A stretch of DNA of 57,906 bases from Thermoplasmatota archaeon (GTDB taxonomy: Archaea > Thermoplasmatota > DTKX01 > DATEUP01), in assembly GCA_035283065.1 (NCBI GenBank), contig DATEUP010000100.1, forward strand, positions 1 to 57,906, in the 5' to 3' direction. The position numbers and the translations under genes were made by a program. Positions within the stretch are counted from its first letter, which is position 1; each line of letters starts with the position of its first letter. Of this stretch, positions 1-36,260 are shown piece after piece. The notes beneath the pieces were generated by a model that was not told the origin of the DNA, did no database searches, and worked only from the letters and a program-made list of their open reading frames with translations.

Positions 1-109
1 CGCAAGCCGCGACCTTGATGAGGAGCTCGCCCTCGCCGGGTGCGGGCGTCGGGACTTCCTTGACCTGGAGTTCGTGCGCGTCTTTGCTTTCAAGGACTGC
101 AGCCTTCAC
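1..109 (-). CDS. Zn-dependent alcohol dehydrogenase (MDR superfamily), 5' fragment truncated by the window edge. Candidate Had-type hydroxyacyl-CoA dehydrogenase.
   Basis: My translation of the minus strand from GTG at 107-109 gives VKAAVLESKDAHELQVKEVPTPAPGEGELLIKVAAC..., the classic MDR/ADH N-terminus. A GGGGAGG Shine-Dalgarno lies about 8 nt upstream (about 118-124). It is absent from the ORF track because it runs off the window. Confidence 0.55.
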   Translation of the reverse strand, partial: MKAAVLESKDAHELQVKEVPTPAPGEGELLIKVAAC

Positions 110-123
110 GAGTTCAACCTCCC

Positions 124-900
124 CTAGTGCCCCTTGAACACCGGGCGCCTACGCTCCGCGAAGGCCCGCAGGCCCTCGTTTGCGTCCTCAAGCGCCATGA
201 GCTCGCCAAGGTAGAGCCGCCGCAGCGACTCGAGCGCGCGCGGGTCGATGGGCGGGGCGGCTTCGCGGAGCGCCCGCTTCGCGAGCGCAAGGACGGGGCG
301 CGAGAGCTCGCCGAGCTTTGCGCAGACCTCGTCGGCCTTGGCGAAGACGTCGTCGTCGCCGAACACGTCGTTCACGAGCCCGATCTCCTTCCCGCGCGCC
401 GCGCTGAAGGTCTCGCCCAAGAACACGATCTCCGCCGTGGCGCGGACGCCAATCCTCGAGGGGTACGCCACGACGGCCGCGGGGGGGAACACGCCGACCT
501 TCACCTCGGGCTGGCCGAGCTTCGCGCCTGCGCCCGCGTACACGAGGTCGCAGCAGGCGGCAAGCTCGAGGCCCCCGCCGAGGCAATGGCCGTGGACGGC
601 CGCCACCACGGGCACGGCGGCCATGTCGACCGCGCGAAGCATCGCAACAAAGGCGTCCATCATGTCGCCGGCCTTGTCGGCCGTGTGGTCGGCCATGTCG
701 ACGCCGGCCGAGAAGGCCCGGCCCGCGCCGCGGATCTGGATCCCGTTCACGGCCCGGTCCACCGAAGCCCGCTCGACCTCGCGCGCAAGCTCGCGCATCA
801 TCGCGGTCGAAAGCACGTTGAGCGGCGGCCGGTCAAGGACGAGGGTCGCAAACCCCCTGCCGTCCGTGCGTCGCACGGTCGTTGGCCCCTCGTCGCTCAA
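124..900 (-). CDS. Enoyl-CoA hydratase/isomerase (crotonase) family protein. Candidate dienoyl-CoA hydratase (Dch-like).
   Basis: 258 aa. Crotonase signatures are LDRPPLNVL, GAGRAFSAGVDMADHT and HGHCLGGGLELAACCD. The TTG start overlaps the stop of the upstream ATPase gene (TTGA at 897-900), so it is co-transcribed with the bcr-like genes. Confidence 0.85.
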   Translation of the reverse strand: MSDEGPTTVRRTDGRGFATLVLDRPPLNVLSTAMMRELAREVERASVDRAVNGIQIRGAGRAFSAGVDMADHTADKAGDMMDAFVAMLRAVDMAAVPVVAAVHGHCLGGGLELAACCDLVYAGAGAKLGQPEVKVGVFPPAAVVAYPSRIGVRATAEIVFLGETFSAARGKEIGLVNDVFGDDDVFAKADEVCAKLGELSRPVLALAKRALREAAPPIDPRALESLRRLYLGELMALEDANEGLRAFAERRRPVFKGH

Positions 901-1721
901 GCGGCCGCCCCCGCGCGGTGAAATGCCTCGACCTCTCTCCGCCGGTTGAGCCGCACCCGCCCGAGCAGGGCCGCGCCGAAGGCGCCGGCATAGGTCGACT
1001 CCCCGCTCCTTGCGATCGGGAGCCCAAGGCGCGAGGAGAGAGCGGCGACCGTGCCCCCGTTCTGGGCCACACCGCCTGTTATCACGACGGGGGCGTTTGC
1101 GCCCACCTGCCGCGCCAGCGCCACGACGCGGTCGGCAATCGAGTGGTTCGCCCCCATCACGATGTCATCGATCGGGCGCCCCTCCGTCACGAGGTTGATG
1201 ATCTCGGACTCTGCAAGCACCGCGCAGATCGAGGAGATCGGCTGCGCCTCCTTCGAGCCTGCCGCGGCCGCCTCGAGCTGCGACACGTCGAGCTCGAGGG
1301 CCTTGGCTACCCTTTCGAGGAACCGGCCCGCGCCCGCGGCGCACCTTTCGCTCATCTTGAACTTGAGGACGCGCCCCGCCTCGTCCACGGAAATGGCCCG
1401 CGTGTTCTGCGCCCCCACATCAATCACCGTGCGCGTCCCCGGGAAGAGCGCGCAGGCTCCCCTCGCGTGGCAGGTGATCTCCGTGATCTGGATGTCCCGC
1501 TTGGCGAACTGGTACCGCCCGTACCCCGTCGCCGCGATGTACTCCAGGTCCTTCTCGCTTAGCCCCACCGCGGCAAGCGCTTCCGCAAGCGCCCTTTCGC
1601 CCGCGCCGTTGAGGTCCGAGCCCGAGCGCACGAGCGCGTGCGCCTTCAGCGCCCCCGACTCGTCGATGAGCACGGCCTTCGTCGAGACCGCCCCGATGTC
1701 CACCCCTGCGATGTACCGCAT
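897..1721 (-). CDS. BcrAD/BadFG/HgdC-family ATPase subunit (benzoyl-CoA reductase or 2-hydroxyacyl-CoA dehydratase activator type), second copy.
   Basis: 274 aa. It has the ASKHA phosphate-1 motif AGVDIGAVSTKAV and two conserved Cys contexts, MSERCAAGAGRFLE and ISSICAVLAESE, which are cluster ligands in this family. It starts 3 nt after the stop of the preceding paralog. Confidence 0.85.
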   Translation of the reverse strand: MRYIAGVDIGAVSTKAVLIDESGALKAHALVRSGSDLNGAGERALAEALAAVGLSEKDLEYIAATGYGRYQFAKRDIQITEITCHARGACALFPGTRTVIDVGAQNTRAISVDEAGRVLKFKMSERCAAGAGRFLERVAKALELDVSQLEAAAAGSKEAQPISSICAVLAESEIINLVTEGRPIDDIVMGANHSIADRVVALARQVGANAPVVITGGVAQNGGTVAALSSRLGLPIARSGESTYAGAFGAALLGRVRLNRRREVEAFHRAGAAA

Positions 1722-1724
1722 CTC

Positions 1725-2564
1725 TCAGTGCCCCCTCAGCATCGGCAGTTCGCCCGGCGGCGCTCTCGGTGAGGGCGCCCCTTGCGCCCGCTCGAGCGCG
1801 AAGATCGCCGCCCCGATGCACCCCAAGTACTGCGACAGCGGGCTCACGTTGATCTTTTGTCCGAGGCGCTCCTCGAGCGCCGTCACCATCCCCGGGTTCC
1901 TCGACACCCCGCCCGTGAACGTGATTTCGGGGTCCACTCCCACCCGCCGCATGAGCGCAAGGCTCCGTGCCGCAATCGCGCTATGCACGCCGCGGAGGAT
2001 GTCCTCCGTCTTCCTGCCCTTCGAGAGGTGCGACATGATCTCCTGCTCCACGAACACCGTGCAGACGTTCGTGATGCGAAGCGGCGCCTTGCTCGTGAGC
2101 GACACGGGGCCGATCTCGTCGATCGTCAGCCCCATGACGTTTGCCGCCGCGTCGAGGAAACGGCCCGTGCCCGCCGCGCACTTGTCGTTCATCGAGAAGT
2201 CCACGATCTCGCCTTCGGCCGAGATCCGGATCGCCTTCGTGTCCTGTCCGCCGATGTCGAGGATCGTCCGCGTCCCCGGGAACACGGAGATCGCGCCCCG
2301 CGCGTGGCAGGAGATCTCCGTCACCTGCGCGTTGCCAAAGGGGACCTTGTAGCGCCCGTAGCCCGTCCCCACGACGTACCCCACGTCGTGCTCCTCCAGC
2401 CCGGCCTCCTTGAGCGCCTCGGCAAAGAAGTTGCGCGCGGCGCGAACGACGTTCGCCCCCGTGGGCCCCAGGCTCTTGCCCACGAGCGTCTTGCCGTCGT
2501 CGAGGATCGCCGCCTTCGTCGTCGTGGAGCCCACGTCCACCCCTGCGTAGTACACTTCAGGCAC
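1725..2564 (-). CDS. BcrAD/BadFG/HgdC-family ATPase subunit, first copy.
   Basis: Motifs are [27 protein letters not shown] and [12 protein letters not shown]. The ORF track extends to 2705, but I place the start at GTG 2562-2564 ([12 protein letters not shown]), which overlaps the BcrB-like stop by 8 nt. The longer version would overlap the upstream gene by about 150 nt. Confidence 0.85.
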
Positions 2565-3834
2565 CCCCCTTTGCCGTGAGCTTGCGGTGCTCGAGCGCCT
2601 CGAAGAACGCGTCAATCCGGTTGCGCAGCTGGGCCTCCTGGAAGTAGCGCGGGTCGGCAAGGTCCGACTCGACAAGCAGCGTGGGGATGTTCTTCTCCCG
2701 GACAAACTTGTCCCGGAAGTCCCCCTGGCCCACGGAGAAGGACCTGCAGCTCTTCACGCTGTGGATCACCACGGCGTCGGCCTTGAAGTGCTTCACGTAG
2801 TCCTCAATCAGCTTCGCGCGCTTGTCGAGCGACCAGTTCGTGTAGCACTGGAGCGAGTACTCGGCAAGCGACTCGATGGGCCTCGACGGGTCGTGGCGCA
2901 GCCCCGTGTCAAAGAGGCCCCCGACCTTCGGGTACGTTGCGGCCGTCGCGACCACGCCCCACCGCTTGAAGAGTTCCCAGAAGGCGCGGAAGTGCGGCCA
3001 AGGGGGGGGCCCTTCCATCACCACGCGGAAGCGCTCCTTCTCGACGGGGCCGATCCCGCGCTCTTTTCGCTCCGCGATCTCGCGCAGCACCGCATCGTAG
3101 TAGTCGACACACTCCTTCGTCCCGCGGAAGATGTTGATCCCGGCCATGAAGAAGACCGCCTCGAAGTACGCGTCGATCGGCGAGGGCACGTTCGCGGCCT
3201 CCTCGAGCACCTCGCACCAGCGGTCCTCCGCCTTCCTCGAAAGTTCGAGGATCCGCGAGAGCTCCGCCTTGTCAAACGCCTTGCCCGTGATCTTCTCACA
3301 CGTCGCGACAAGGTCGTGCAGCTGGCTTACCGTGTAGTCGAGGTCCTCCTTGGGCACCGCCGCGTCGCGAACGTAGGGCACGTCGAGCATGACGAGCGGC
3401 ACGTCGTAGAACTCGGAGAGCGCCTCGAACCACTTGATGTAGGTGTTGCACCCGGAGAAGTTGCACACAAGCAGGTCGGGCCTCGGCAGGTTTCCCATCG
3501 GGCTCTTGTTGTTCTGGATCACGAGCCCGATGTCGTTCTTCACATAGCCGCACACGTCGGAGGAGTACCCTTTGTCCTCCGCCTTCAGGATCAGGGGGCC
3601 CGCCGCCTTCTTGATCCCGCACTGGAGCGCGTTGATCTCGGGGTAGAGGACGAGGAAGCCAAAGGCGCGGAAGAGTTCTTGGATGTTCCCCGAGATGAAG
3701 AGGTAGGCGACCGGCGTCTTCGTCTCCTTCGCATGCGCCAGGGCGTCGTACTCCTGCCCCATCATCTTGCGCTGGAGGTTCTTCCCCGCGTCCTGGTACT
3801 TGAAAGGCGATTCCCCTGGCGGCTGGATCATCAT
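2557..3834 (-). CDS. bcrB: Benzoyl-CoA reductase subunit B / 2-hydroxyacyl-CoA dehydratase beta-type subunit (BcrB/BadE/BzdO/HgdB family).
   Basis: 425 aa. It resembles the HgdB/BcrB family ([30 protein letters not shown], a C-terminal RIDAFFEAL helix). An AAGGAGGGAGGG SD lies just upstream, 20 nt after the BcrC-like stop. Confidence 0.8.
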
Positions 3835-3854
3835 GTTCCCTCCCTCCTTGGGTT

Positions 3855-5030
3855 TTACGCAAACAAGACCGACTCGACAAACGTCTCGACCTGCGTGCGC
3901 GCCGACTCGAAGGCGCCCATCTTCTCCTCGAACTCGACCGAGAGGTAGGGGACCTTCTCGCGCTCGAGCACCTCTTTGAAGAGCACGAAGTCGTAGAGCG
4001 CCGGCTCGCAGAACTTCGCGGAGCAGAAGATTACCCCGTTCGCCTTCGCACGCCGGACCCGCCCGACCAGCGTCTCGCTGCGCCGGCTCTGGCCTTGGTG
4101 GCGCACGCTCGTCATCGACGAGTGGTTCACATAGGCCGCTGCAAGCGCCCGCACGGGGTCGCCCCCGTTTACCTCGACCTCCTCGTTGAACCAGCGCTGG
4201 CCGAGGCAGAGGTCGTCGTCGACGATGTAGCAGCCCGACTCCTCGATCGTCTCGATGAGCTCGAGCGGCGGCTGTTCGCAGAAGGACCCTTCGAGGATCA
4301 CGCGCACAGCGTCCCGGGGCCTCGCGCGGCGGGCCTGGATCTCTTCGAGCGCGCCATCAAGGACCTTGATGTGCTCCTCCTTGGGCATCACGCACCCGAG
4401 CCTTGCAAGCACGGAGGACTCTGCCGCCGACAGGCGTTCTGGGTGGAGCGCGCGCACCTGGTAGAGCGCCCTCAAGCGCGCCCGCCCGCGGTTGTAGAGG
4501 TCGATGGAGTCGCGCAACTTCTCCGGCGTGGCTGTCTCGCCAGAGAGCGTTTCGAGACGCTTGAGTAGCCGGGCAAACTCCGCCGTGAGGTACTCGACGG
4601 CGGCCGCGTGGTTCGAGTGCTGGGGCATGTGGAGGAGTTCGGAGAGCGCCACCTGGCCGAAGTTCCGCTTCCAGACGCCCGAGAGGTTTCGGGCAACGTC
4701 GCAGATCGTCGTGAAGGTCATCCCGTCAAGGAAGTCCAGCCGGTTCGTGAGCCCGAGCTCGAGCGTCGAGCGCGAGATCGAGCAGACGAAGGACTGCATC
4801 CTTGAGTCCGCGTGGTCGATCTCGACTCGCGTGCCGCCGCCCATGATGCCGACCGGAAGCATCCCCGCCGCGTGGATGAGCTCCGCGGGCGGGAACACGG
4901 GGAAATAGCCGACGGCCTTTCGGCCGGTCTTCGCCTTCCACTCGCGTACCGACGGGAATGTGGGGTCGGTCGCCAGGTCTGCGAACCTCTCGACGAAGGG
5001 TGCTTTCGACACGCGCCCGCCTCCGGCCAC
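3855..5030 (-). CDS. bcrC: Benzoyl-CoA reductase subunit C-type (BcrC/BadD/BzdN family).
   Basis: 391 aa and the same dehydratase-component fold family (FCSAKFCEPALYDFVLFKEVLEREKVPYLSVEFEEK). It is the first gene of the operon. GTG starts are possible at 5030 or 5012. A TATA-like element plus a palindrome lie 20-35 nt upstream. Confidence 0.8.
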   Translation of the reverse strand: MAGGGRVSKAPFVERFADLATDPTFPSVREWKAKTGRKAVGYFPVFPPAELIHAAGMLPVGIMGGGTRVEIDHADSRMQSFVCSISRSTLELGLTNRLDFLDGMTFTTICDVARNLSGVWKRNFGQVALSELLHMPQHSNHAAAVEYLTAEFARLLKRLETLSGETATPEKLRDSIDLYNRGRARLRALYQVRALHPERLSAAESSVLARLGCVMPKEEHIKVLDGALEEIQARRARPRDAVRVILEGSFCEQPPLELIETIEESGCYIVDDDLCLGQRWFNEEVEVNGGDPVRALAAAYVNHSSMTSVRHQGQSRRSETLVGRVRRAKANGVIFCSAKFCEPALYDFVLFKEVLEREKVPYLSVEFEEKMGAFESARTQVETFVESVLFA

Positions 5031-5043
5031 AAGGCCGTGGTAA

Positions 5044-5067
5044 CCACAATGTAGCTACAATATAACC
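5044..5067 (-). promoter_or_regulatory. Putative promoter/operator of the bcr-like operon: TATA-like TTATAT followed by the perfect palindrome TGTAGCTACA.
   Basis: The minus strand reads GGTTATATTGTAGCTACATTGTGG. This is an AT-rich island in GC-rich DNA. The TATA-like element lies about 30 nt upstream of the bcrC-like GTG at 5030. The 20-mer 5046-5065 matches 5741-5760 at 17/20 positions. Confidence 0.5.
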
Positions 5068-5108
5068 TATCGGCATTTACAGCCGGGCTTCCCTGAAGGC
5101 CGGCCAGG

Positions 5109-5558
5109 TCAAGGCGAGCTTTCGAGCAGGACGGCATCCCCGCGCCTGAACCCCAACGTGGCGAAGTACGAGACCATCTCGCCCGCGTCCCAGGGGACGA
5201 GCGTCTTCACGCGGCGAACACCGCGCTTGCGCAGGCGCCGCAGCGCCTCCGCTCCAAGCGCGTGGCCGAGGCCCTGCCCCTGGAACTCGGGGTCCACGCC
5301 GACGACCTCGATCCAGCCGACCGGCTCCTTCTCCCCGAACTCCACGGTGCGCACTTCCGCCACGAGGAAACCCCCGAGGCGGTCCCCCACGGGGGCCGCG
5401 AGGCAGATGCTCGAGCTGCCGGCCTTCAGGCGAGCCCGCAGGTTCCGCTCGAGCCCCGTGCGCCCGCGGGTGCGCGTCACCCGCCGCTCGAGCGCCACCG
5501 CCAAGGGCACGTCGCGCGCGGCCATCGCCCGCACCTTGACCTTGCCGCGCCTTGGCAC
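5109..5558 (-). CDS. GNAT-family N-acetyltransferase.
   Basis: 149 aa. It has the acetyl-CoA-binding motif VGVDPEFQGQGLGHALGAEALRRL and ends YFATLGFRR. GTG start at 5558, with a G-rich SD 12 nt after the stop of the small upstream gene. Confidence 0.8.
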   Translation of the reverse strand: MPRRGKVKVRAMAARDVPLAVALERRVTRTRGRTGLERNLRARLKAGSSSICLAAPVGDRLGGFLVAEVRTVEFGEKEPVGWIEVVGVDPEFQGQGLGHALGAEALRRLRKRGVRRVKTLVPWDAGEMVSYFATLGFRRGDAVLLESSP

Positions 5559-5570
5559 TCTCTTCCCCCC

Positions 5571-5717
5571 TTAGTCGATCCGCACGATCTTCACGCGCTT
5601 GCCGATCCAGTCCGGCGGCAGGTAGATCCGCCCGGAGTTGCCCGAGGGCTTCACGACCTTCTCCACCATCTCGTGACCTTCCACGATGAACTGCGCCTTC
5701 GACGGTGACCGCGCCAT
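5571..5717 (-). CDS. Small AbrB/SpoVT-like (DUF2080-like) DNA-binding protein, 48 aa.
   Basis: My translation gives MARSPSKAQFIVEGHEMVEKVVKPSGNSGRIYLPPDWIGKRVKIVRID. The core GNSGRIYLP..W.GK.V is the swapped-hairpin AbrB/SpoVT signature that I associate with the DUF2080 family. It is too short for the ORF track. Confidence 0.55.
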   Translation of the reverse strand: MARSPSKAQFIVEGHEMVEKVVKPSGNSGRIYLPPDWIGKRVKIVRID

Positions 5718-5737
5718 GTTCCGCTCGCCCGGCTTGC

Positions 5738-5764
5738 GCTACAATGTGGCTACAGGATAAAAGC
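5738..5764 (-). promoter_or_regulatory. Second copy of the TATA + TGTAGCYACATTGT promoter/operator motif.
   Basis: The minus strand reads GCTTTTATCCTGTAGCCACATTGTAGC, 21-47 nt upstream of the ATG of the 48-aa gene. It has the same orientation and architecture as 5044-5067. Confidence 0.45.
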
Positions 5765-5844
5765 TCGGCTGCGGGCGCCTGCGGGAGGTATTTACGCGAG
5801 GCTAATGATGCGGCCGGGACACATCGGCACGGAGGCCCTGAAGC

Positions 5845-6804
5845 GTGGCGCGCGACCTAAAACCCCAGGATGCGGGGTCCTTTGGCTTCGAGGACATTCT
5901 CTATTCGAAGGCGGACTGGGTCGCGACGGTGACCTTCAACCGGCCGCGCGTGTACAACTCCTACCGGACCCAGACGCTCATCGAGCTCCGCGAGGCCTTC
6001 CGCGACGCGACGGTTGACGACGCCGTCGCCGTAATCGTCCTGACGGGCGCCGGGGACAAGGCGTTCTGCACCGGCGGCGACGTGAAGGAATACGCGGAGG
6101 TCTACACGCGGCGGCCCTCTGAGTACTGGAAGTACATGAACGAGTTCGTGGCCGCCCACGACGTCCTGCGCGGCTGCGGCAAGGCGACGATCGCGCGCGT
6201 GAACGGCGTCGTGGCTGGCGGCGGCAATGAGTTCCACATGGCCTGCGACCTGTCGGTGGCCGCCGACCACGCGGAGTTCCTCCAGGTCGGCACGAAGGTC
6301 GGTTCCGTGGCCGCCGGCGGCGCCACGCAGTGGCTCCCCCTACTCATCGGCGACCGGCGCGCGCGCGAGATGCTGCTCCTTTGCGAGAAGGTCGACGCGA
6401 AGAAGGCGCTCGACTGGGGGCTCGTAAACCAGGTCGTCCCCGCGTCCGAACTCGACGCGGCGGTCCGCGCGCTTGCGGAGAAGCTCATCGACAAGTTCCC
6501 CGAGTCCACGCGCTACACGAAGGAGCAGGTGAACTTCTGGAAGGACCTCGCCTGGCACCAGACCGTGGGGCACGCGCGCGATTGGCTTTCCGTCCACTTC
6601 GCGACCCAGGAGCCCTTCGAGGGGATGCGCGCGTTTGTCGAGAAGCGCGAAGCGCGCCCCCGCAAGATGCGGGAAGAGCGCGCCGGCGGGGGGTCCCCCG
6701 AATACCTGTGGGGTCCTCCCGCAAAGACCTGCTCGTCCTGCCACGCCGCCGGGATCCCCGAGGGCTTTGCCTTTTGCGGGAAGTGCGGCGCCAAGCTCGG
6801 ATGA
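5845..6804 (+). CDS. MenB/BadI/Oah-like crotonase (candidate ring-opening ketoacyl-CoA hydrolase) with a C-terminal zinc-ribbon extension.
   Basis: 319 aa. FEDILYSKADWVATVTFNRPRVYNSY...VLTGAGDKAFCTGGDVKEY closely follows the MenB/BadI-type N-terminus. The last about 26 aa, CSSCHAAGIPEGFAFCGKCGAKL, form a CxxC...CxxC ribbon. GTG start. Confidence 0.8.
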   Translation: MARDLKPQDAGSFGFEDILYSKADWVATVTFNRPRVYNSYRTQTLIELREAFRDATVDDAVAVIVLTGAGDKAFCTGGDVKEYAEVYTRRPSEYWKYMNEFVAAHDVLRGCGKATIARVNGVVAGGGNEFHMACDLSVAADHAEFLQVGTKVGSVAAGGATQWLPLLIGDRRAREMLLLCEKVDAKKALDWGLVNQVVPASELDAAVRALAEKLIDKFPESTRYTKEQVNFWKDLAWHQTVGHARDWLSVHFATQEPFEGMRAFVEKREARPRKMREERAGGGSPEYLWGPPAKTCSSCHAAGIPEGFAFCGKCGAKLG

Positions 6805-7565
6805 CCGGGGGCCTTACTCTGGGCGAATTCAAGGGCAAGGCCGCGTTTGTGACGGGCGGCTCGTCGGGGATCGGCGCCGCGATCTGCCGCGCGTTTGCGC
6901 GCGAGGGGGCCAATGTGGGCCTCACGACCTTCGGCCCGCGGGGCGACGTGCGCGCGGTTCTCAGAGACATCAAGGCGGCTGGCGCGACCGCCTGGGCCGA
7001 CGAGGTGGACGTGGCGGATTACCGAGCGGCGAGCCGGACCCTCGAGGCCGCGCAGGACGCCCTCGGCCGCCTCGACATCGTCGTCGCCAACGCGGGGATC
7101 AACCTCGACCACACGATCCTCAAGATGCGCGAGGATGAGTTCGACCGCGTGGTCGCTGTGAACCTCAAGGGGTGCTTCAACTACCTGCGGGCGGCCGGCC
7201 TCCTGTTCAGGGAGAAGGGCGCAGGGGCGATCGTCACCGTGTCTTCGGTGAACGGCCTTCGCGGAAAGGCCGGACAGGCCAACTACGCCGCCTCGAAGGC
7301 AGGCGTCGTCTCGCTCACCCGGACGGCCGCCCTCGAATTCGCGCACTTCGGCGTGCGGGTCAACTGCGTGGCGCCGGGGTTCACACAGACGCCGATGACC
7401 GACGAGCTTCCGGCCGACGTCCGCAAGCGCGCAGTCGATGCGACGCCGGCGGGCCGGAGCGCCCGGCCCGAGGAAATCGCGGACGCCGTCCTCTTCCTCG
7501 CTTCCCCCCGCGCCTCCTTCATCACGGGCCAGGTCCTTTCCGTCGACGGCGGCCTCCTCCTCTAA
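6801..7565 (+). CDS. Short-chain dehydrogenase/reductase (FabG/BadH-like 3-oxo/3-hydroxyacyl reductase).
   Basis: 254 aa from the ATG at 6801 (ATGA overlap with the upstream stop). It has TGGSSGIGAAI (the TGxxxGIG motif), NAG and the YAASKAG catalytic Y-x3-K. The upstream part of the track ORF 6330-7565 is an out-of-frame shadow of the crotonase gene. Confidence 0.9.
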   Translation: MTGGLTLGEFKGKAAFVTGGSSGIGAAICRAFAREGANVGLTTFGPRGDVRAVLRDIKAAGATAWADEVDVADYRAASRTLEAAQDALGRLDIVVANAGINLDHTILKMREDEFDRVVAVNLKGCFNYLRAAGLLFREKGAGAIVTVSSVNGLRGKAGQANYAASKAGVVSLTRTAALEFAHFGVRVNCVAPGFTQTPMTDELPADVRKRAVDATPAGRSARPEEIADAVLFLASPRASFITGQVLSVDGGLLL

Positions 7566-9257: not shown

Positions 9258-12200
9258 TCAGACCTTCGGGCGCTTGCGCCGCTGCCTTCCGAGCAGGAAG
9301 AGCGCCGCACCCGCGCCCGCCAAGATCGGCACGAGCGCGAGGAGCCCCATCGAGGCCGGCGGCGAGGTCGTCACAGGCGCGGCCTCCGGCGCAGGCTCCG
9401 AGGGGGGCCGTTCTTCGACCACGAAGTTCACCCGCGCCTCGTTGTTGTACTCGTCGGACTCGTAGACCCGCCCCACCACGGGGCTTGCCCCCGGCTCGTC
9501 CTTCGGGTCAACAAAGAGGGCGAGCGCGTGGGCCCCCGCCTTGAGCGTGAGGGGTACGCGCAGGAAAACGGACAGCCCCGGCCCGACTGAGGGCACCTCG
9601 TCCACCAGCACAATACTTCCGTCGACGAGTACGCGAAGTCCCGTCGGCGCCGAGGCCGCTTGGCCCGCGTTTGCCACCCTCAGCACAACCTCTCCTGCAA
9701 GCTCGGGGTCGGCAAACCCCTGAGGCAGGCTCTCGACCGTGACCGTGAGGTCCGGCAACACGACCCGCACAACCGTCGCAAAGCTCGCCGTGGGTCCCCT
9801 CGCGCTCGACAGCACGACCGTCACCGGGACGCTCACGGGGACGGGCTCCCGCGGCGCAGTAATCTCGAGGAGGAGCCGCCCGCGCGCGTAGGGCGCCAGC
9901 GTAAGCGTCCCCGTCCCCAGGAAGCTCGTGTCGTTGGAGTCGCCCCGCTCGTAGCGCATGTCGACACCCCAATACTGCGGCGCGTCTACGCGCACCGTTA
10001 CGACGAAGATGTCCCGGACGTTTCCAAGGTGCCGCAGCGCGCCCTCAATCCCCACGACCCCCGAGGGCCCGACGTCGAGTCCCGACGCATTGAACGCCGC
10101 CTCAAGGCCGTAGGCGGCAGGCAACCGCACCGTAAGCGAGAGGTTCCAGGGGTCCATCGCGCCCGCCCTCAGCCGCACCGTGAGCTGGTACGACCCCGAG
10201 GGGGCCTCGGCGGGCGCCTGAACGCGAAGCGCGACCTTGCCCTGCCCGAAGGCGGGGACCTCTTCGGCCGGGGTGCCCCCGACGGAAAGCGCGCTTTCGA
10301 CGGTAAAGCCCGGAGGCGAGGCGACGACCTCGACTTCGACCGCCTCGCCGACATTCCCCATGTTCTCCAGCGTGAACTCGAACGAGGCCGCGCCGCTTGC
10401 GTCGGCGTCGACTGCGGTGCCCTGCGACCTCCACGCCGCGCTGTGCACGCTCCGGACGGTGATCTCGACGCGCGCTTCGCCCACGGCCACGCTGCCCGCG
10501 CAGGTGCCGCGCACCGTGAGGTTCAGCACTTGCCCCCCAGGGGCGTTGCCCGGCGCGGCGACCTCAAATGAAGCCGCCGCCGTCTGCCCGCCGGCAAGTC
10601 GCGCGCCAAACGGGCTCCCGAGGACCGTCCAACCCGAGGGCAGGCTCTCCACGAGCCCCAGCGTGCAGTCGACCGGCTGCCCCGCGTTCCCCTCGTTCAA
10701 CATCGCAAACGCCGGGCGCGTCGAGCCCCCGGGGTCCACCTCGACGGCCTGGAAGTCCGGCGTCACGACGGGCCTTGCCACGAGCCCCACGCGCACGCAG
10801 AACCCCGCGGTCGCCAGGGAAAAAACATCGTTGGGGTTCTGGACCTTGAGCCTTCCGCAGTAGCTTTCGCCCGCGCTCGCGTCGACCGGCGGCGTGACGG
10901 CGAGCACGACGGCCTGCGACGCGCCCCGCGGGGCCGTAAAGTCCGCCGCCGAAAGCGCGGCGCTCCAAGCCGGGTCGAAGGGCGGCACACTCAGGGCGAG
11001 CGGCACCCCCTGCTCGTCGGCAAGGCCCGTGTTGCGCACCGTGAACGTCAAATTGGCCGTGGCCCCCGGCCACGCGGTCACGTTTTGGTCCGCAGGGTCC
11101 ACCTGGAAACGGTGCCCGGCAACGACCGTCACGTTGACGCGAAGGTCGAGCACCACGCTCGGCCGGTGCACATCCGCCACCTGGACCCGCACCACGGCCC
11201 TGTAGGGCGTAGGGTCGAAGACCGGCCCCCGGACCTCCAGGGAAAGGCCCGCCGACTCGCCGGCCTCCAAACCGAGGTCCGCGACCGGCGCCCCCGTCGT
11301 GGCATTCACCACGCCGGCGGTCCAATTCGTGGGGCCTGCGCCCACGGAGACCACGGCCCCGACGGAGAGATTCACCGCCTCCGGCGACAGGCTCGCAAAG
11401 GCGAGTGGGACACTGCCCACTTCGCCGCGGATGAGGGTCATGTCCGGCGCGTCTACCGCCACCCGGTACCCCGTCCACCGCAGTCGCAGCGGCGCGCCCC
11501 AGATCGTCGAAGTGTAGGCCCCTGTGTCGTTTTGCCAAACGACCCAAACGGAGCCGTCAGGCGCCGCAGCCGCCCGCGCGTTCACGTCGGACTCGGCCCC
11601 CAGCGAGACGCTGGAGGCCGCCGCCACCACGGACAAATCGGCCGCGTCGAGCGCGCCCGCCCGGACTTTCAAGCCGCCCCCGCCCGCCGCCGACGACCAG
11701 ACCACGAGCACCTCGCCCGAGGGCAGGAGCACAGGGCGCGGCGTCTGCGCCTCCGGCTCGCTTGCAAAGACCACTCGGTCGGCAAGCTCCACACCCCCCG
11801 TCGCGTTGAGCTTTACCGCGTGGACGCTTGCGCCGTCCGACCATACGGCCACGACCCCGCCGTCCCCCACCGCCCCCACGCTGAGGTTCGCGGCCGTCGT
11901 GCCGAGGCTCACCGGCCCCCACGCCGCCGACCCGTTTTCGTTAAGGGCTCGCACGTATCCCGTCCCCGCCCGCGACGCCCAAGCGACCAGCATAAGCCCT
12001 GCGGGCCGGTCGTAAGCCAGCTGGGCCGGGAACCCCGTCCCGCCGTCGCTGTAGAGCGTCAGGTTCGTTGCCGTCCACGAGCCGTTTGCCGCCATCCGCG
12101 AGTAGAGCAGCGACGTGTTCCACCGCACGACGTGGACCGAGGCGTTTGCCCCCACAGCCACCGCCGCACTCGCCGTCCCGTAGGGCGTTGTCCCCACGCG

Positions 12201-12695
12201 CCGGTCCGCCACGAGCGTGCTCCCGGCAAGGTCCACGACCTTCACATTCACCGCCTGCGCCGGGAAGGCATAGGACCAGTAGACGCGCGCCATCCGGTCG
12301 GCCGCGTCGAGCGCCGCGTAAGCCCCCCGCGCCGTCGTATTCCCCCATGTGTCGTACTGGAGCCCCGGCGCCAGATCGACTTCCAAGCCGACGGGGTTTG
12401 CGTTTCCCCACTCAAACCTCTGCAGTTTCGGCGAGGTCCACCCCGGGAACGACCCGCCGAGGTAGCCCAGCACGAGGCCGCCGCCGGACTCAGCGAACGG
12501 CTCCGGGACTTCCTGGACATTCGAACCGCTCACTAGCTCGACTGCGCCCCCGACATCCAAGTACCGACCCTGAGGCACCTCGAGCGCGACCTCCGCGGCC
12601 TCCCGCCCCCCCGCGGCCGCCGGGCCCGTCACCAAGTTGCCCGCAACCAAAAGCGCGCAGAGCGCCAGGGCAGCCCCACCCGCCTTCGGCGACAT
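9258..12695 (-). CDS. Large cell-surface protein: signal peptide, propeller-like repeats, multiple NEW3/CARDB-type Ig-like domains, C-terminal TM anchor.
   Basis: I place the start at ATG 12695 (MSPKAGGAALALCALLVAGNLVTGPAAAGG is a signal peptide). The track start at 12821 would overlap the TatD gene. The C-terminal CARDB-like domain ends ...YESDEYNNEARVNFVV, followed by a Pro-rich linker and LLALVPILAGAGAALFLLGRQRRKRPKV. It has many N-x-S/T sequons. Confidence 0.8.
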   Translation of the reverse strand: MSPKAGGAALALCALLVAGNLVTGPAAAGGREAAEVALEVPQGRYLDVGGAVELVSGSNVQEVPEPFAESGGGLVLGYLGGSFPGWTSPKLQRFEWGNANPVGLEVDLAPGLQYDTWGNTTARGAYAALDAADRMARVYWSYAFPAQAVNVKVVDLAGSTLVADRRVGTTPYGTASAAVAVGANASVHVVRWNTSLLYSRMAANGSWTATNLTLYSDGGTGFPAQLAYDRPAGLMLVAWASRAGTGYVRALNENGSAAWGPVSLGTTAANLSVGAVGDGGVVAVWSDGASVHAVKLNATGGVELADRVVFASEPEAQTPRPVLLPSGEVLVVWSSAAGGGGLKVRAGALDAADLSVVAAASSVSLGAESDVNARAAAAPDGSVWVVWQNDTGAYTSTIWGAPLRLRWTGYRVAVDAPDMTLIRGEVGSVPLAFASLSPEAVNLSVGAVVSVGAGPTNWTAGVVNATTGAPVADLGLEAGESAGLSLEVRGPVFDPTPYRAVVRVQVADVHRPSVVLDLRVNVTVVAGHRFQVDPADQNVTAWPGATANLTFTVRNTGLADEQGVPLALSVPPFDPAWSAALSAADFTAPRGASQAVVLAVTPPVDASAGESYCGRLKVQNPNDVFSLATAGFCVRVGLVARPVVTPDFQAVEVDPGGSTRPAFAMLNEGNAGQPVDCTLGLVESLPSGWTVLGSPFGARLAGGQTAAASFEVAAPGNAPGGQVLNLTVRGTCAGSVAVGEARVEITVRSVHSAAWRSQGTAVDADASGAASFEFTLENMGNVGEAVEVEVVASPPGFTVESALSVGGTPAEEVPAFGQGKVALRVQAPAEAPSGSYQLTVRLRAGAMDPWNLSLTVRLPAAYGLEAAFNASGLDVGPSGVVGIEGALRHLGNVRDIFVVTVRVDAPQYWGVDMRYERGDSNDTSFLGTGTLTLAPYARGRLLLEITAPREPVPVSVPVTVVLSSARGPTASFATVVRVVLPDLTVTVESLPQGFADPELAGEVVLRVANAGQAASAPTGLRVLVDGSIVLVDEVPSVGPGLSVFLRVPLTLKAGAHALALFVDPKDEPGASPVVGRVYESDEYNNEARVNFVVEERPPSEPAPEAAPVTTSPPASMGLLALVPILAGAGAALFLLGRQRRKRPKV

Positions 12696-12763
12696 TGCAG
12701 GGGGCCCTTTCCCTTCGTTCCAATTAACCCTGCGCAATTGCGCTACCCTTCCACAACGCCCCC

Positions 12764-13621
12764 TTAGATCTCGACCTCGACGCCGTAGAGCGCTTCGGGG
12801 TTCTCCTTGTGGATCCTCCACACGCGCTCCTCTGCCACCCCCTGCTCAAGCATCGCCCGCGTCCGGCGCGGCACCGTCGCGGGCGCCATCACCGCCCCCG
12901 GCCTCCGCCTGTCGTCGATGAAGTCCGTCTCGAGCATGAACCGGTCCCCCTTTCCAAGCGCCTCCTTCACATTCGGCCTCGACGCCATCACGGACGGCAT
13001 GAGCCCGAAATTCTCGTCCGGCCGCACGAGCGGCCCGCAGTAGTGCTTCGCCACCTTCGCCTTCGAAAGGCCCGAGGCCTCAACCCGGGCCGCGAGGTCC
13101 TTCATCACTTCGACCGTCGCCGACTCCGTGTGGAGCTGAACGGCGAGCCCCGCGTCCTTCGCGGCCGCAAACTCAAAGGCCATCAGCCGGTTCGAAAACG
13201 CCCACATCTCCTCGGACACCGCGTAGTGGGGCCGACCCGCCTCCGAGAGCGCGACGACAAGCGGCTCCTCGCGCGCGATCTTCACGCACTGCCCGATGGC
13301 CCCCGTGAGGAGATCCCACGCGCCCTCGAAGCCCAGCCGCTCGCCGTGCCTCGTGAACTCGGCGGGGTGCGGGCAGAGCGCGACGAAGCACCGGACGTCG
13401 CCCCGCGCGTTCACGGCCCGCCCCATGTCAACCGTTCGCACGAACTCCGCCCGGTACGCTTCCGCCGTTGTCGAGAGGGCTTCGAAGTCGGGCTTGTGCA
13501 CGAGTAGGAAGTGCGTGCCCCCCGCCTTCACGAACTCGTCGACGCTCGCCTGGTAGCCGCCGTGGACGGGGTCAAGGTGGAAGTGGTCGTCAAAGACCGG
13601 CACGTTCGGAGGGGCTCCCAT
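12764..13621 (-). CDS. TatD-related metal-dependent hydrolase (TIM-barrel, archaeal COG1099 type).
   Basis: 285 aa. It has the N-terminal metal motif VFDDHFHLDP and later His/Glu/Asp ligand contexts (LHTES, ETDFID). Confidence 0.75.
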   Translation of the reverse strand: MGAPPNVPVFDDHFHLDPVHGGYQASVDEFVKAGGTHFLLVHKPDFEALSTTAEAYRAEFVRTVDMGRAVNARGDVRCFVALCPHPAEFTRHGERLGFEGAWDLLTGAIGQCVKIAREEPLVVALSEAGRPHYAVSEEMWAFSNRLMAFEFAAAKDAGLAVQLHTESATVEVMKDLAARVEASGLSKAKVAKHYCGPLVRPDENFGLMPSVMASRPNVKEALGKGDRFMLETDFIDDRRRPGAVMAPATVPRRTRAMLEQGVAEERVWRIHKENPEALYGVEVEI

Positions 13622-14387: not shown

Positions 14388-16646
14388 TCAACGGATCTTG
14401 TCGAGCGAGAACGAGCCGATGTTGATGCCCTTCCGCGAATACTCGTAGGAGATCCACCCGCGGTTCTGCGCGTCGGTGATCCCGACCACGCGGATGTAGT
14501 TCTTCGTGTTTTCCGTCTTGACCTGGATCGAGCCGTCCATCGCGTGGGCGAGGTTTGCAAGGTCCGTTGCCGAGTGCATGGCCTCGTCGAGCGCGTAGAC
14601 CGAGACGGCCTTCTTCATCTTGCTCTTGCCCGTGAGCATCTGGAGGAAGCGGAACGTGGCCGTGACATCCGAGTACGTGATGAAGGTGGAGATCGACATC
14701 ACCACGACGCGGTACGTGGGGTGCTTCTCCTCCTTCGTCCACCTGTCCGTGATGACCTCCATGGCTTCCATGATCGCCTTGTAGTCCGTCGGGTGGTCGA
14801 TGAACGCGGCATATTTGTTCTCCTCCGCCTCGCCCATGGCGCGCGAGTAGCAGTCGACCCACCGCAGGAGCCCGAGCTTCTCATACTCGTCGATCGACGG
14901 GAGGATCGCCGCCAGCTCCTGCTTGACGGACGCGGGCGCGACATCCGTGAGGACCATCGCGACGGGAACGCCCTTCTGGAGCCCCTCGGCGGCGAAGGCA
15001 TACATGAAGACCTCCTTGCCGATGAACGCCGGGCCCGACACGAGGATGTTCCCGCCGATCGGGAACCCCCCGTACACGAGGTCGTCCATGCGCGGCGTGC
15101 CGGTCTTCACCTTGCGCGCCTTCATCTCGAGCTCGATTTCCTTCTTGCGCATGTCGACGTCTTCGCGGACCGCCGCCTCTTCCTTGATGCGCAGCTGGCC
15201 CTCCTTCTGGCGCAGGAACGACTCCTTGGCCTTCATCTCCTCTTCCTTGGCCGCAATCTCGCGCTCGAGCTGCTGGAGGCGCTTCTTCATCTCGAGCTGT
15301 TCGACCGAGCCCTCCTGCTGCTTGGCCTCCTGGAGCTGGCGCAGCGACTGCTCGACGACCTTCTGCTTGTAGTCGAGCTCCTCCTGGCGCCGGTTGAACT
15401 CCTCGTCCTTGTACTTCACGACGGTCTTGAGTTTCCTAAGCTCGTCCTCGCGGGACTCCATCGAGATCTTGAGTTCCTTGATCCGGTCGTCGCGCTCGAC
15501 GATGAGCTTCTGCATTTCCGGGAGTTCGTTCATCTTGTTGTTGAACTGGGAGTCGGCCTCCTCGCGGCGAAGCTCGCGCTCCTCCTTGAGGCGCTGGAAC
15601 TGCTCCGTGAGTTCCTTCTCACGGGCCTTGAGGCGCCGGTCCTCGGCCTCGAGCTTTGCGCGCGCGTCCGCGAGCTGGAGCTCCTTGGCCTTGACCGCCT
15701 CGCTGTCCACGGCGGGCCCGCCCCGGACCGGGACCGGGCGCCCGGCGACGGGCTGCGGGAGGGTGCCCGCCTTCGCGAGGGCCTCGCGCTTCTCGACGAC
15801 TTCCTTCTCGAGCGCCTGGACCTGCTCCTCGAGCCCCTTGCGCCGTGATTCCTCCTCGCGGGCCGTCTCGCGGAGCGACTCGAGCTCCTCGTCGTGCTTC
15901 TTGCGCTGGAGGTTCGTCACGTACTTCATCATCGCAATCGAGCCCTTCTTGAGGTTCTCGAGCTCGGCCTCGATCTCCGCGCGCCGCTTCTCCTCGCGCG
16001 AGTACATGTCGCGGAACTCTTCGAGTTTCATTCGCGCCTGGCGCAACTCGTCCTCCATCGCCTGGACCTCGGCGGAGGTGAGGCCGAGCACGGCGGCGCC
16101 CACCACGCCCTCGCCGGCCTGGGCGCGCATGAGCTTCTCGCGGAGGTCCTCGACCTCGGCCATCTTCTTCTTGAGCTCGAGGCGGGCCTTGTCGAATTCG
16201 TCTTCCTTGACGCGGATGTACTCGTCGGCCTTCTTGAACTCGGCGTACTGCTCGAGCCGCCGGTTCATGTCGTTGAGCTCCTTCTCGTACTTGATGCGCT
16301 GGAGCGCGATTGTGTTGCGCATCTTGATCTGGAAGTCGTTCTTGACGCGGTTGAGCTCCTCCTCCTTGGCGGCAAGGTCGGCCTTGAAGTGCTCGAGCTC
16401 GGCGCTCGCGGCCTGGCTGGCGGCGCGGCCCGAGCCGCCGTCGACGGTGATCGAGCGGGCGCCTTCGCGTGTGAGCCCTTCGGTTTCCTCGCCGCCTTCG
16501 GTCTCGCGGGCCTTGAGGATCTCGCCGCGCCTGCGGTATGCCGCCATGTAGCGGTCCAGCGGCGAGCGGGGGGCGATTGCGGGGACTTCTTGCGTGGCCA
16601 CGGCGCTTCCCCCCGCCTCTTTGAGCCTCGATCGGGGCGGGGGCAT
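14388..16646 (-). CDS. Coiled-coil protein (about 480 aa of heptad-rich sequence) with a C-terminal KaiC/FlaH-like RecA-superfamily domain and a degenerate Walker A.
   Basis: 752 aa. The long E/K/R/L/Q-rich region is followed by GTPRMDDLVYGGFPIGGNILVSGPAFIGKEVFMYAFAAEG, the KaiC-type P-loop context with Glu in place of Ser/Thr. It ends DGSIQVKTE..YIRVVGI...ISYEYSRKGINI, as KaiC-like domains do. Confidence 0.8.
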   Translation of the reverse strand: MPPPRSRLKEAGGSAVATQEVPAIAPRSPLDRYMAAYRRRGEILKARETEGGEETEGLTREGARSITVDGGSGRAASQAASAELEHFKADLAAKEEELNRVKNDFQIKMRNTIALQRIKYEKELNDMNRRLEQYAEFKKADEYIRVKEDEFDKARLELKKKMAEVEDLREKLMRAQAGEGVVGAAVLGLTSAEVQAMEDELRQARMKLEEFRDMYSREEKRRAEIEAELENLKKGSIAMMKYVTNLQRKKHDEELESLRETAREEESRRKGLEEQVQALEKEVVEKREALAKAGTLPQPVAGRPVPVRGGPAVDSEAVKAKELQLADARAKLEAEDRRLKAREKELTEQFQRLKEERELRREEADSQFNNKMNELPEMQKLIVERDDRIKELKISMESREDELRKLKTVVKYKDEEFNRRQEELDYKQKVVEQSLRQLQEAKQQEGSVEQLEMKKRLQQLEREIAAKEEEMKAKESFLRQKEGQLRIKEEAAVREDVDMRKKEIELEMKARKVKTGTPRMDDLVYGGFPIGGNILVSGPAFIGKEVFMYAFAAEGLQKGVPVAMVLTDVAPASVKQELAAILPSIDEYEKLGLLRWVDCYSRAMGEAEENKYAAFIDHPTDYKAIMEAMEVITDRWTKEEKHPTYRVVVMSISTFITYSDVTATFRFLQMLTGKSKMKKAVSVYALDEAMHSATDLANLAHAMDGSIQVKTENTKNYIRVVGITDAQNRGWISYEYSRKGINIGSFSLDKIR

Positions 16647-16711
16647 TAATAAGGGTTTGTCGCAGGGGTGCGGCCTTTGCAGGGTCGGGGGACAGGGGAG
16701 CTTGAAGGGCG

Positions 16712-20077: not shown

Positions 20078-20279
20078 CTCCTCCTGCGCGGCCTTCGGGC
20101 GCTTGGCCGCCCCGGGGGGCGGCGCGTCGTCCTTGGAATCGGGCGTGCTTTTCCCCCCTAGAAGCGCTGGCGCTCCACCCTGCTGGAGACTCGGGTTTTC
20201 AACCCGCGCCGGTTATAATAGTGTTGCCCCGCGAGTCGGCCCCTCGCGATTCAGGAAGCTGGCCGGGCAGCGGGAAGGC

Positions 20280-21615: not shown

Positions 21616-21660
21616 TCATTAAATCGCGGGCCTAGCCAATCCTTTTGTGCAGGCGGCCTG

Positions 21661-22440
21661 ATGCCGCCGGCCGAGGGTTCTGCGATGCAAGCTGGACAAA
21701 TGGCGTATGACCGCGCGATCACGGTGTTCTCCCCCGACGGCCGCCTGTTCCAGGTCGAGTACGCCCGGGAAGCCGTCAAGCGCGGCACGACGACGATCGG
21801 GCTGAAGTTCAAGGACGGCGTCGCCCTCATCATCGACAAGCGCGTCTCCTCGCGGCTCATCGAGCCCTTCTCGATTGAGAAGATCTTCGTCATCGACGAC
21901 CACATCGGCTGCGCGACCTCGGGGCTCGTCGCCGACGCCCGCGTCCTCGTCGACCGCGCGCGGGTCGAGGCCCAGGTCAACAAGATCACGTACGACGAGA
22001 CGATTCCCGTCGACATGCTCGTGAAGAAGATCTGCGACTTCAAGCAGAACTTCACGCAGTACGGCGGCGTCCGGCCCTTCGGGACCTCTCTCCTCATCGC
22101 GGGCGTGGACTCGGCGGGGACGCACCTCTTCGAGACCGACCCCTCGGGCGCGCTCATGGCCTACAAGGCCGGCTCGATCGGCTCGGGCCGCAACGAGGCG
22201 ATGGCCGTCTTCGACGAGAAGTACAAGGAGGACCTGAAGCGCGACGAGGCCGTGGCGCTCGGCCTCGAGGCCCTCGCGAAGGCCACCGAGGGGGAGATCT
22301 CGGAGGTCTCCGTCGAGATCGGGCTCATCGAGAAGGGGAAGCGCTTCCGCAAACTCGACCCCGACGAGGTTTCTAAGTACGTGAAGCAGTACCTGAAGGC
22401 GCATGAGGGTGACCCGAAGCCCGAAAAGAAGCCCGAGTGA
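21661..22440 (+). CDS. psmA: Proteasome subunit alpha.
   Basis: [35 protein letters not shown] is the alpha-subunit signature. 259 aa. Confidence 0.95.
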
Positions 22441-22476
22441 GGTCGGCCTCACCGGGCCCCTCGAGGGGGGCGCCTT

Positions 22477-23181: not shown

Positions 23182-23191
23182 GGCGCGTGCG

Positions 23192-24588: not shown

Positions 24589-24599
24589 GTTTAGAAGAA
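24589..24599 (+). promoter_or_regulatory. Putative TATA-like element for the rrp4-rrp41-rrp42 unit.
   Basis: GTTTAGAAGAA lies about 30 nt upstream of the GTG at 24625. Confidence 0.35.
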
Positions 24600-24624
24600 C
24601 CGGGGCGGCGAGAAAGGGATTCCT

Positions 24625-36242: not shown

Positions 36243-36260
36243 CGTCTAACGCTTGATGCG

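Follow-up and report, generated by a model that had tools for sequence, protein, structure and literature searches.

A probable class I aryl-CoA reductase of the BCR/MBR type and its ring-opening enzymes in a Thermoplasmata archaeon

A gene cassette at positions 1-7565 of a 57,906-nucleotide (nt) stretch of DNA (contig DATEUP010000100.1 of assembly GCA_035283065.1, hereafter the 58-kb window) probably encodes a four-subunit ATP-dependent class I aryl-CoA reductase, related to benzoyl-CoA reductase (BCR) and 3-methylbenzoyl-CoA reductase (MBR), together with the enzymes that would open the reduced ring. An earlier note on this DNA had proposed a class I BCR rather than a 2-hydroxyacyl-CoA dehydratase, and this proposal is sustained by the position of the beta subunit in the BCR clade (100/100 bootstraps), by two distinct ATPases and by the C-B-A-D gene order. 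The sequence examined comprises the window and 7.4 kb to the left of it on the window's own contig (L001).

Results

Gene content of the cassette

The cassette consists of a C-B-A-D operon on the minus strand and a diverging gene pair on the plus strand, coding for a MenB-like protein and a short-chain dehydrogenase/reductase (SDR). Its enzyme genes are the following:

1-109, minus strand: start of a medium-chain dehydrogenase/reductase (MDR), a Had-like Zn-dehydrogenase gene that runs off the window
124-900, minus strand: crotonase of 258 amino acids (Pfam ECH_1), candidate dienoyl-CoA hydratase (Dch-like)
897-1721, minus strand: ATPase 2, delta-like, 274 amino acids (Pfam BcrAD_BadFG)
1725-2555 or 1725-2564, minus strand: ATPase 1, alpha-like (BcrA/MbdQ-like), 276 or 279 amino acids (Pfam BcrAD_BadFG)
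2557-3834, minus strand: BcrB-like (beta, substrate-binding) subunit, 425 amino acids (Pfam HGD-D)
3855-5030, minus strand: BcrC-like (gamma) subunit, 391 amino acids (Pfam HGD-D); the start chosen by other gene callers gives 385
5845-6804, plus strand: crotonase of the MenB/BadI/Oah family, 319 amino acids, with a CxxC...CxxC zinc-ribbon tail; candidate ring-opening hydrolase
6801-7565, plus strand: FabG-like SDR, 254 amino acids (Pfam adh_short_C2; FabG models 264-268 bits)

All the genes that the earlier note had listed in this region were found where it had placed them. Its sizes of 391, 425, 274 and 258 amino acids stand, whereas ATPase 1 has 276 or 279 residues and not 280. The genes had also been described as linked by 3-20-nt gaps or overlapping stop and start codons, which matches the measured distances: 20 nt between the C and B genes, a 1-nt gap or an 8-nt overlap between B and ATPase 1, 3 nt between the two ATPase genes, a 4-nt overlap of ATPase 2 with the crotonase gene and 14 nt between crotonase and MDR. 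The MenB-like and SDR genes overlap by 4 nt, and the SDR gene is translationally coupled to its partner. The full MDR protein has 342 amino acids and is encoded at 13726-14754 of L001, where the same contig extends to the left.

Family placement of the reductase subunits

We compared the subunits with the curated NCBIfam models, reading the bit scores against the equivalog cut-offs. The B-like subunit obtained 381 bits with the BcrB model TIGR02260 (cut-off 486.55), 232 with HadB (750) and 125 with BzdO (448.6); the corresponding values for the C-like subunit were 355.4 bits with the BcrC model TIGR02263 (421.15), 239 with HadC (700) and 135 with BzdN (453.8). The proven MBR served as calibration: MbdO reached 220, 136 and 70 bits with the BcrB, HadB and BzdO models, and MbdN 227, 157 and 93 bits with BcrC, HadC and BzdN. 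Since both subunits from the window score above MBR on the BcrB and BcrC models, the canonical models fit them better than they fit a proven aryl-CoA reductase. Two canonical BcrB representatives gave 630 and 815 bits with TIGR02260 and 164 and 160 bits with HadB, and the B-like subunit, over its entire length, has 41% identity to the one with 815 bits (P0125).

ATPase 1 matches the BcrA model TIGR02259 with 209.7 bits in its C-terminal part only (positions 227-432 of 432). It is without the long N-terminal part of the BcrA alpha subunit and resembles MbdQ (269 amino acids) in this respect. ATPase 2 gave 154 bits with BzdQ and 147 with BcrD. The two proteins are 42% identical to each other and hence truly distinct, in keeping with the earlier claim of two different ATPases. 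For all four subunits the best match among solved structures is a chain of MbdONQP, with 244 bits for B to MbdO, 301 for C to MbdN and 341 for ATPase 1 to MbdQ; for ATPase 2 the alpha subunit MbdQ, with 214 bits, is a slightly better match than the delta subunit MbdP, with 192.

A phylogenetic placement, which the earlier note had suggested, was carried out for the beta-type subunits by neighbour-joining only. The tree holds 113 sequences drawn from representatives of an exhaustive search of 1.84 billion proteins, orthologues from 80 genomes, MbdO, HadB and BzdO. Canonical bcr/bad genes were also sought on plasmids as references, and only distant 'dehydratase family' matches of 26-33% identity turned up there; the canonical BcrB representatives were picked by their TIGR02260 scores from among the representatives of clusters made at 50% identity. 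In 100/100 bootstraps a single clade unites canonical BcrB and MBR with two uncharacterised groups; the HadB-like sequences and BzdO are outside it, so that the subunit from the window stands with the BCRs. Within this clade MBR makes up a subclade of its own (96/100), and the window belongs to a sister subclade that we call group I. Archaeal sequences nest among bacterial ones; because the archaeal cluster was recovered in only 11/100 bootstraps, we make no claim of a single transfer into archaea.

These data bear directly on the reading of the locus as a 2-hydroxyacyl-CoA dehydratase with its activator, serving amino-acid fermentation. Pfam reports only HGD-D and BcrAD_BadFG domains, close homologues go by the NCBI product name '2-hydroxyacyl-CoA dehydratase', and HadB and HadC are the second-best solved structures for B and C. 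On the other hand, such dehydratases have one homodimeric activator where the window has two different ATPase genes, the HadB and HadC scores remain far from their cut-offs and below the BcrB and BcrC scores, and the BCR clade is separated from HadB in every bootstrap replicate. The neighbouring genes are Had-, Oah- and Dch-like instead of coding for a CoA transferase and a 2-hydroxyacid dehydrogenase. We therefore consider a dehydratase very improbable.

Metal ligands and enzyme subtype

BzdO's catalytic [4Fe-4S] cluster is bound by Cys95, Cys128 and Cys380, with Glu65 and His131 beside a bound water (PMC11971306). The B-like subunit has Cys95, Cys129 and Cys363 at these positions, which also align with MbdO and HadB, and the three cysteines are invariant in 71 orthologues, as is Glu66 within a PE(I/V)NALQ motif. 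BzdO Tyr97 aligns with an identical residue. At the position of His131 the B-like subunit carries Tyr; across the clade it is Tyr or Phe, and in MbdO it is Phe. The acid/base pair of Bzd is thus not common to enzymes of the BCR/MBR type.

In an alignment of 20 homologues, Cys83, Cys110, Cys251 and Cys341 of the C-like subunit do not vary. Of the six double-cubane cysteine positions of BzdN, three are conserved in the clade and three are missing. Cys274 (in DDDLC), which aligns with a double-cubane ligand of BzdN/DCCP, was considered as a fourth ligand or as part of a double cubane and rejected: it is not conserved even in relatives of 75-84% identity. An FCE(Q/T)PP motif in the gamma subunit is common to the window and MBR. 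The two conserved cysteine contexts that the earlier note had seen in each ATPase are present in both translations, as KCAAGTGRF and VCTVF in ATPase 1 and as RCAAGAGRF and ICAVL in ATPase 2, and the phosphate-binding motifs of ATPase 2 are altered relative to ATPase 1 (DIGAVSTK, DVGAQNT).

Judged by these features, the enzyme is of the BCR/MBR type and not of the Bzd type. The earlier note had favoured Bzd, which conflicts with the low BzdO and BzdN scores (125 and 135 bits as against 381 and 355 for BcrB and BcrC) and with a C-like subunit that is without the six-cysteine motif of the [8Fe-9S] double-cubane cluster. Its argument from the small size of the ATPases fails as well, since MBR also has small ones (MbdQ, 269 amino acids; MbdP, 273).

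Partner enzymes

The best model for the MDR protein is Had (TIGR03201) with 242 bits (cut-off 338.65), 29 bits above the next model. The MenB-like protein gave 207 bits with Oah (TIGR03200, cut-off 464.45), 193-195 with MenB (343-380) and 191 with BadI (467.6), and its best solved structures are MenB. Dch, Had and Oah had been named in the earlier note among the enzymes of the downstream steps; the last two agree with the top-scoring models, all scores being below the cut-offs, and the crotonase fits Dch no better than generic hydratases.

The C-terminal zinc ribbon of the MenB-like protein (6730-6804) follows the pattern EYLWG...C.SC.A.GIP..F.FCGKCGA. Run alone against the NCBIfam models, Oah included, it matched no family. 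The tail is kept in orthologues beside reductase genes in archaea and at least eight bacterial lineages, and the carriers include archaea, Chloroflexota, Zixibacteria, Neomarinimicrobiota, Planctomycetales, Eisenbacteria and Armatimonadota. The protein is of the MenB/BadI/Oah branch, within a separate subfamily that has this tail.

Synteny across phyla

Synteny was examined in 80 related loci. The C and B genes are followed by two ATPase genes (C-B-A-A order) in 62 of 73 related loci. Partner genes were counted in the group I loci of at least 12 kb (n=16), which come from different phyla and vary in gene order: in 13 of these, homologues of two or all three of the genes for crotonase, MDR and MenB-like protein lie beside the reductase genes. 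A crotonase homologue lies near the reductase in 12 and an SDR homologue (41-49% identical) in 11. Among the lineages carrying such partners are Ignavibacteria, Bacteroidota, Zixibacteria, Neomarinimicrobiota, Planctomycetales, Eisenbacteria and Thermoplasmata. Group I relatives occur in at least 370 species-level genomes; all those among the 80 loci are metagenome-assembled genomes (MAGs).

An orthologous reductase in an Ignavibacteriales MAG (C 51-53%, B 58% and A1 67% identical to the subunits of the window) is especially informative. Its cluster contains a bona fide, canonical Oah of 375 amino acids (569 bits with TIGR03200, cut-off 464) in place of the zinc-ribbon-tailed MenB-like protein, and a Had-like MDR (266 bits). 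It also codes for an acyl-CoA dehydrogenase, a thiolase, a hydroxyacyl-CoA dehydrogenase fused to a hydratase and an indolepyruvate:ferredoxin oxidoreductase. This neighbourhood is a link by association between the clade and the benzoyl-CoA pathway. For the roles of the partner enzymes, synteny is stronger evidence than the model scores, and it is synteny only that backs the crotonase as a candidate Dch.

Host, integrity and selection

The host belongs to the class Thermoplasmata and is an archaeon from soil or sediment. Its archaeal nature, already claimed in the earlier note, is borne out by housekeeping genes in the rest of the window (TBP, TatD, proteasome alpha, SBDS, Rrp4, Rrp41, Rrp42, prefoldin beta, eIF2-gamma and ribosomal protein S6e) and by a GenBank MAG contig (L007) that bears the label of a Thermoplasmata archaeon and whose collinearity with the window's contig extends past the cassette, at 75-85% nucleotide identity. 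The taxonomic markers of the host include a run at 21616-27593, in which proteasome alpha and SBDS are followed by an M24 peptidase gene on the opposite strand and by Rrp4, Rrp41 and Rrp42; further along the window come prefoldin beta, eIF2-gamma and S6e. To the left of the window, L001 carries the full MDR gene, a hemerythrin gene, an RHH/DUF3368 pair, hypothetical genes, the RNase P subunit Rpr2 and YhbY.

In the public collection an identical B protein is encoded by contigs of 27 blocks, and the same cassette with the same archaeal flanks was found on six contigs (at least six independent ENA and JGI assemblies). About 69% of the bases in the window are G or C, and G+C at third codon positions (GC3) in the coding frames of 1-7565 is 0.89-0.92, like the rest of the window. 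Compared with the 84%-identical relative L007, from GenBank JBGPNV01, dN/dS was 0.08-0.15 for the eight genes tested, which are intact and under purifying selection. Because the arrangement recurs in at least six assemblies, GC3 is host-like and dN/dS is low, the cluster is not an assembly artefact.

The absence of some expected genes raises the question whether the cassette is a horizontally acquired island of which the archaeon makes no use. Gene annotation of the 58-kb window and of the 7.4 kb to its left revealed no AMP-forming aromatic-acid CoA ligase, ferredoxin or 2-oxoacid:ferredoxin oxidoreductase. For the window, the earlier note had said as much of a ligase and a ferredoxin; of what it had hoped for further left, the complete Had-like MDR is there and the ferredoxin, oxidoreductase and ligase are not. 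With downstream beta-oxidation genes also missing nearby, housekeeping genes all around and archaeal sequences nested among bacterial ones, such an island would be conceivable. In the 75%-identical relative (L088) the cassette, from SDR to hemerythrin, lies between different genes, and it thus appears to move as a unit. However, the eight genes are intact under the selection just described, their codon composition is that of the host, and the whole cassette is conserved among archaeal relatives together with a promoter-proximal motif. We give very little weight to an unused island.

Upstream genes, a candidate operator and other features

The region is completed by two genes that lie between the C gene and the diverging genes and are absent from the earlier note, and by two copies of a 14-nt motif:

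5046-5059, minus strand: motif copy 2, TGTAGCTACATTGT, directly 3' of a TATA-like box and 5' of the C gene
5109-5558, minus strand: GNAT acetyltransferase, 149 amino acids (Pfam Acetyltransf_1), 5' of the C gene
5571-5717, minus strand: DUF2080 open reading frame (ORF), 48 amino acids, first gene of the minus-strand unit
5741-5754, minus strand: motif copy 1, TGTAGCCACATTGT, directly 3' of a TATA-like box and 5' of the DUF2080 ORF

The GNAT gene is kept at the same place in the archaeal relatives L007, L008, L043 and L088. In Rhodopseudomonas palustris a GNAT protein, BadL, takes part in regulating the bad genes. PF09853 was called for the 48-residue ORF in six assemblies and in the 75%-identical relative; its sequence (GRIYLPPDWIGKRVKIV) may be AbrB/SpoVT-like. 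The motif TGTAGCYACATTGT is partly palindromic and occurs in two exact copies in 58 kb, with 0.07 chance matches expected; the same scan gave one overlapping palindrome reading with two mismatches on the opposite strand. A copy also lies directly 5' of the C gene in the relatives L007, L088 and L038. The TGTAGCYACATTGT sites are a candidate operator for the cassette, a suggestion made from their sequence and position.

About 0.9-1.5 kb to the left of window position 1 and 3' of the MDR gene, L001 encodes a hemerythrin-domain protein of 174 amino acids (14783-15307) that weakly resembles the iron-sulfur repair protein RIC (44.8 bits). Both the 84% and the 75% relative keep it at this position, and in a Planctomycetales locus a homologue is located just 5' of the C gene. 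The protein may shield the oxygen-sensitive reductase or sense oxygen for it. Directly after it, at the edge of the cassette, an RHH_1/DUF3368 (PIN-like) pair (L001 15392-16199) is probably a toxin-antitoxin module.

Elsewhere in the window, four large predicted proteins of about 930-1390 amino acids (9258-12821, 16712-20212, 46543-50709 and 55073-57871) have faint matches to CARDB, NPCBM_assoc or TSP3 only, the one of 1166 residues having none. The protein at 9258-12821, with a hydrophobic anchor at its C-terminal end, is probably of the surface or S-layer type. AT skew is strongly negative at 14-20 kb, down to -0.42. Three more genes (14388-16766, 34827-36245 and 52654-53412) encode a 792-residue protein whose C-terminal domain is a KaiC/DUF7504 ATPase and two proteins that have double winged-helix domains of the HVO_0163 type.

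Discussion

The gene content and family placement of the cassette are established, as are its conserved metal ligands, its synteny and the purifying selection on it. They can be arranged into a working scheme by homology to the Thauera BCR, MBR and BzdNO enzymes, in which the electron donor and the order of steps, like the substrate, are those expected from the characterised systems. Reduced ferredoxin would give electrons to a [4Fe-4S] cluster bridging the two different ATPase subunits, and ATP hydrolysis would lower the potential of this cluster. Electrons would then pass by the C-like subunit's cluster to the B-like subunit and its three-cysteine [4Fe-4S] cluster, at which benzoyl-CoA or a close analogue would be reduced to a cyclic dienoyl-CoA. 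The co-transcribed crotonase might hydrate the diene in a Dch-like step and the MDR dehydrogenase oxidise the resulting alcohol in a Had-like step. The divergently transcribed MenB-like hydrolase would open the ring, as Oah or BadI does, and the SDR would most likely oxidise the 3-hydroxyacyl-CoA product.

Several findings weigh against this assignment. Neither a reductase subunit nor a partner enzyme reaches its NCBIfam equivalog cut-off, and because all pathway proteins fall below these thresholds we infer the identity of the substrate. The name that NCBI gives to close homologues is only that of the dehydratase. Support inside the BCR clade is weak, with 60/100 bootstraps for group I and 67/100 for a grouping of canonical BcrB with groups I and II that excludes MBR, and the group I subclade is without a characterised member. 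By score the MenB-like protein is not assignable among Oah, BadI and MenB, and the crotonase obtained 142.8 bits with the Dch model TIGR03189 (cut-off 292.5), about equal to generic enoyl-CoA hydratase models. The missing ligase, ferredoxin and oxidoreductase genes belong here as well.

Some of these points would suit an ATP-dependent member of the BCR family that physiologically reduces something other than benzoyl-CoA and whose partner enzymes are adapted to its product. Hydroxy- or methyl-benzoyl-CoA, a partly reduced polycyclic carboxyl-CoA or another aryl- or alicyclic-CoA would be examples. Such a specificity could account for a clade distinct from canonical BcrB and MBR that stays below the cut-offs, for the variable position of BzdO His131 and for a ring hydrolase from a tailed MenB-like subfamily instead of canonical Oah. 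The pairing of the hydrolase with an SDR points in the same direction and can be likened to that of BadH with BadI in the Rhodopseudomonas bad cluster. However, group members from Ignavibacteriales and Bacteroidota, with B subunits 57-60% identical to that of the window, adjoin canonical Oah, the enzyme of the route for unsubstituted benzoyl-CoA, and in their scores the subunits from the window come nearer than MBR to canonical BcrB and BcrC. Benzoyl-CoA is also a substrate of MBR itself. We consider a different substrate unlikely, although it is the alternative with most in its favour, and retain benzoyl-CoA or a close analogue as the probable one.

A second uncharacterised subclade, group II, shares the C-B-A-A core and has B subunits 44-50% identical to that of the window. 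Its loci (L012, L024-L027, L034-L036 and others) come from Acidobacteriota, Binatia and Deltaproteobacteria, and their partners are different, with more distant SDR, MenB-like and MDR genes of 29-39% identity. Group II may have another substrate specificity.

Whether group I amounts to a fourth subtype of class I aryl-CoA reductases, distinct from canonical BCR, MBR and Bzd, is a proposal that we put forward tentatively and with more doubt than conviction. According to this proposal the subtype would be spread over Thermoplasmata and no fewer than 15 bacterial phyla, up to now in uncultured organisms only; canonical Oah would be replaced in many lineages by the zinc-ribbon-tailed MenB-like hydrolase and an SDR, and hemerythrin would travel with the archaeal members and one Planctomycetales locus. 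If it were true, the subtype might have its own substrate range or product, for instance by a Rhodopseudomonas-like route through a BadH/BadI-type pair, and it might permit ATP-costly dearomatisation in energy-limited anaerobes.

Anaerobic ring reduction is the bottleneck in the degradation of lignin-derived and petroleum aromatics, and ATP-dependent class I BCRs were long believed to be confined to facultative anaerobes. Characterisation of a single group I member could allow annotation pipelines to call aromatic-degradation potential correctly in many genomes from soil, aquifers and sediments. It would also test how strict anaerobes meet the ATP cost.

Comparison with known systems

With BcrCBAD of Thauera aromatica and BadDEFG of Rhodopseudomonas palustris (TIGR02263, 02260, 02259 and 02261) the locus shares the C-B-A-D order, two ATPases with the cysteines of the bridging cluster, adjoining Dch-, Had- and Oah-like genes, the best curated models for both catalytic subunits and the fully supported clade. 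It differs by scores below the cut-offs, by an alpha ATPase that is without the N-terminal part of BcrA of about 200 residues, and by having no ferredoxin or 2-oxoglutarate:ferredoxin oxidoreductase gene nearby. The archaeal host and the zinc-ribbon-tailed MenB-like hydrolase also set it apart.

MBR (MbdONQP; PDB 9G87, 9GAI, 9GAL and 9GBA) provides the best structure match and has ATPases of about 270 amino acids and the same three cysteines in each catalytic subunit. It forms a separate subclade, and the subunits of the window are nearer to the canonical BcrB and BcrC models. BzdNOPQ of the Azoarcus type (PDB 8S02; PMC11971306) belongs to the same enzyme superfamily, and BzdO Cys95, Cys128, Cys380 and Tyr97 all have their counterparts in the B-like subunit. 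Its models fit poorly, His131 is replaced by Tyr, and only half of the double-cubane cysteine positions are kept. The 2-hydroxyisocaproyl-CoA dehydratase HadBC and its activator HadI (PDB 3O3M and 4EHT) have the fold, the three-cysteine cluster sites and a homologous ATPase in common with the locus. They differ in that the single activator is homodimeric, whereas the window has two ATPases in one operon, a separate clade and another gene neighbourhood.

A report of 2019 described class I bcr genes together with dch, had and oah in Thermoplasmata and Bathyarchaeota MAGs (PMC6472368), and one of 2022 described bcrABCD in Ca. Yaplasmales (RBG-16-68-12) (PMC9239135). Similar clusters have been reported from the Asgard MAGs of Hermodarchaeota and Lokiarchaeota, the Hermodarchaeota genes being treated as bzd-type (PMC8163825). 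These reports use KEGG-style annotation without biochemical support, the same kind of inference as made here. One contig of our sample (L015), whose bin name bears the South China Sea core label SY.153 used in the Yaplasmales study, has the same C-B-A-D-crotonase-MDR order; its four reductase subunits are 55-68% identical to those of the window, its crotonase 47% and its MDR 55%. In view of the published MAG clusters, the statement in the earlier note that class I BCR is described for very few archaeal lineages is outdated at the level of genome surveys and holds only for cultured organisms tested for their physiology. Archaeal class I bcr clusters are thus already in the literature, and the present locus is a good example that overturns nothing. 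Its remaining interest lies in the widespread group I subclade, named only 'dehydratase' by NCBI and in many members accompanied by the tailed MenB-like hydrolase, of which the locus is a clean, selected and syntenically well-supported case in a Thermoplasmata archaeon.

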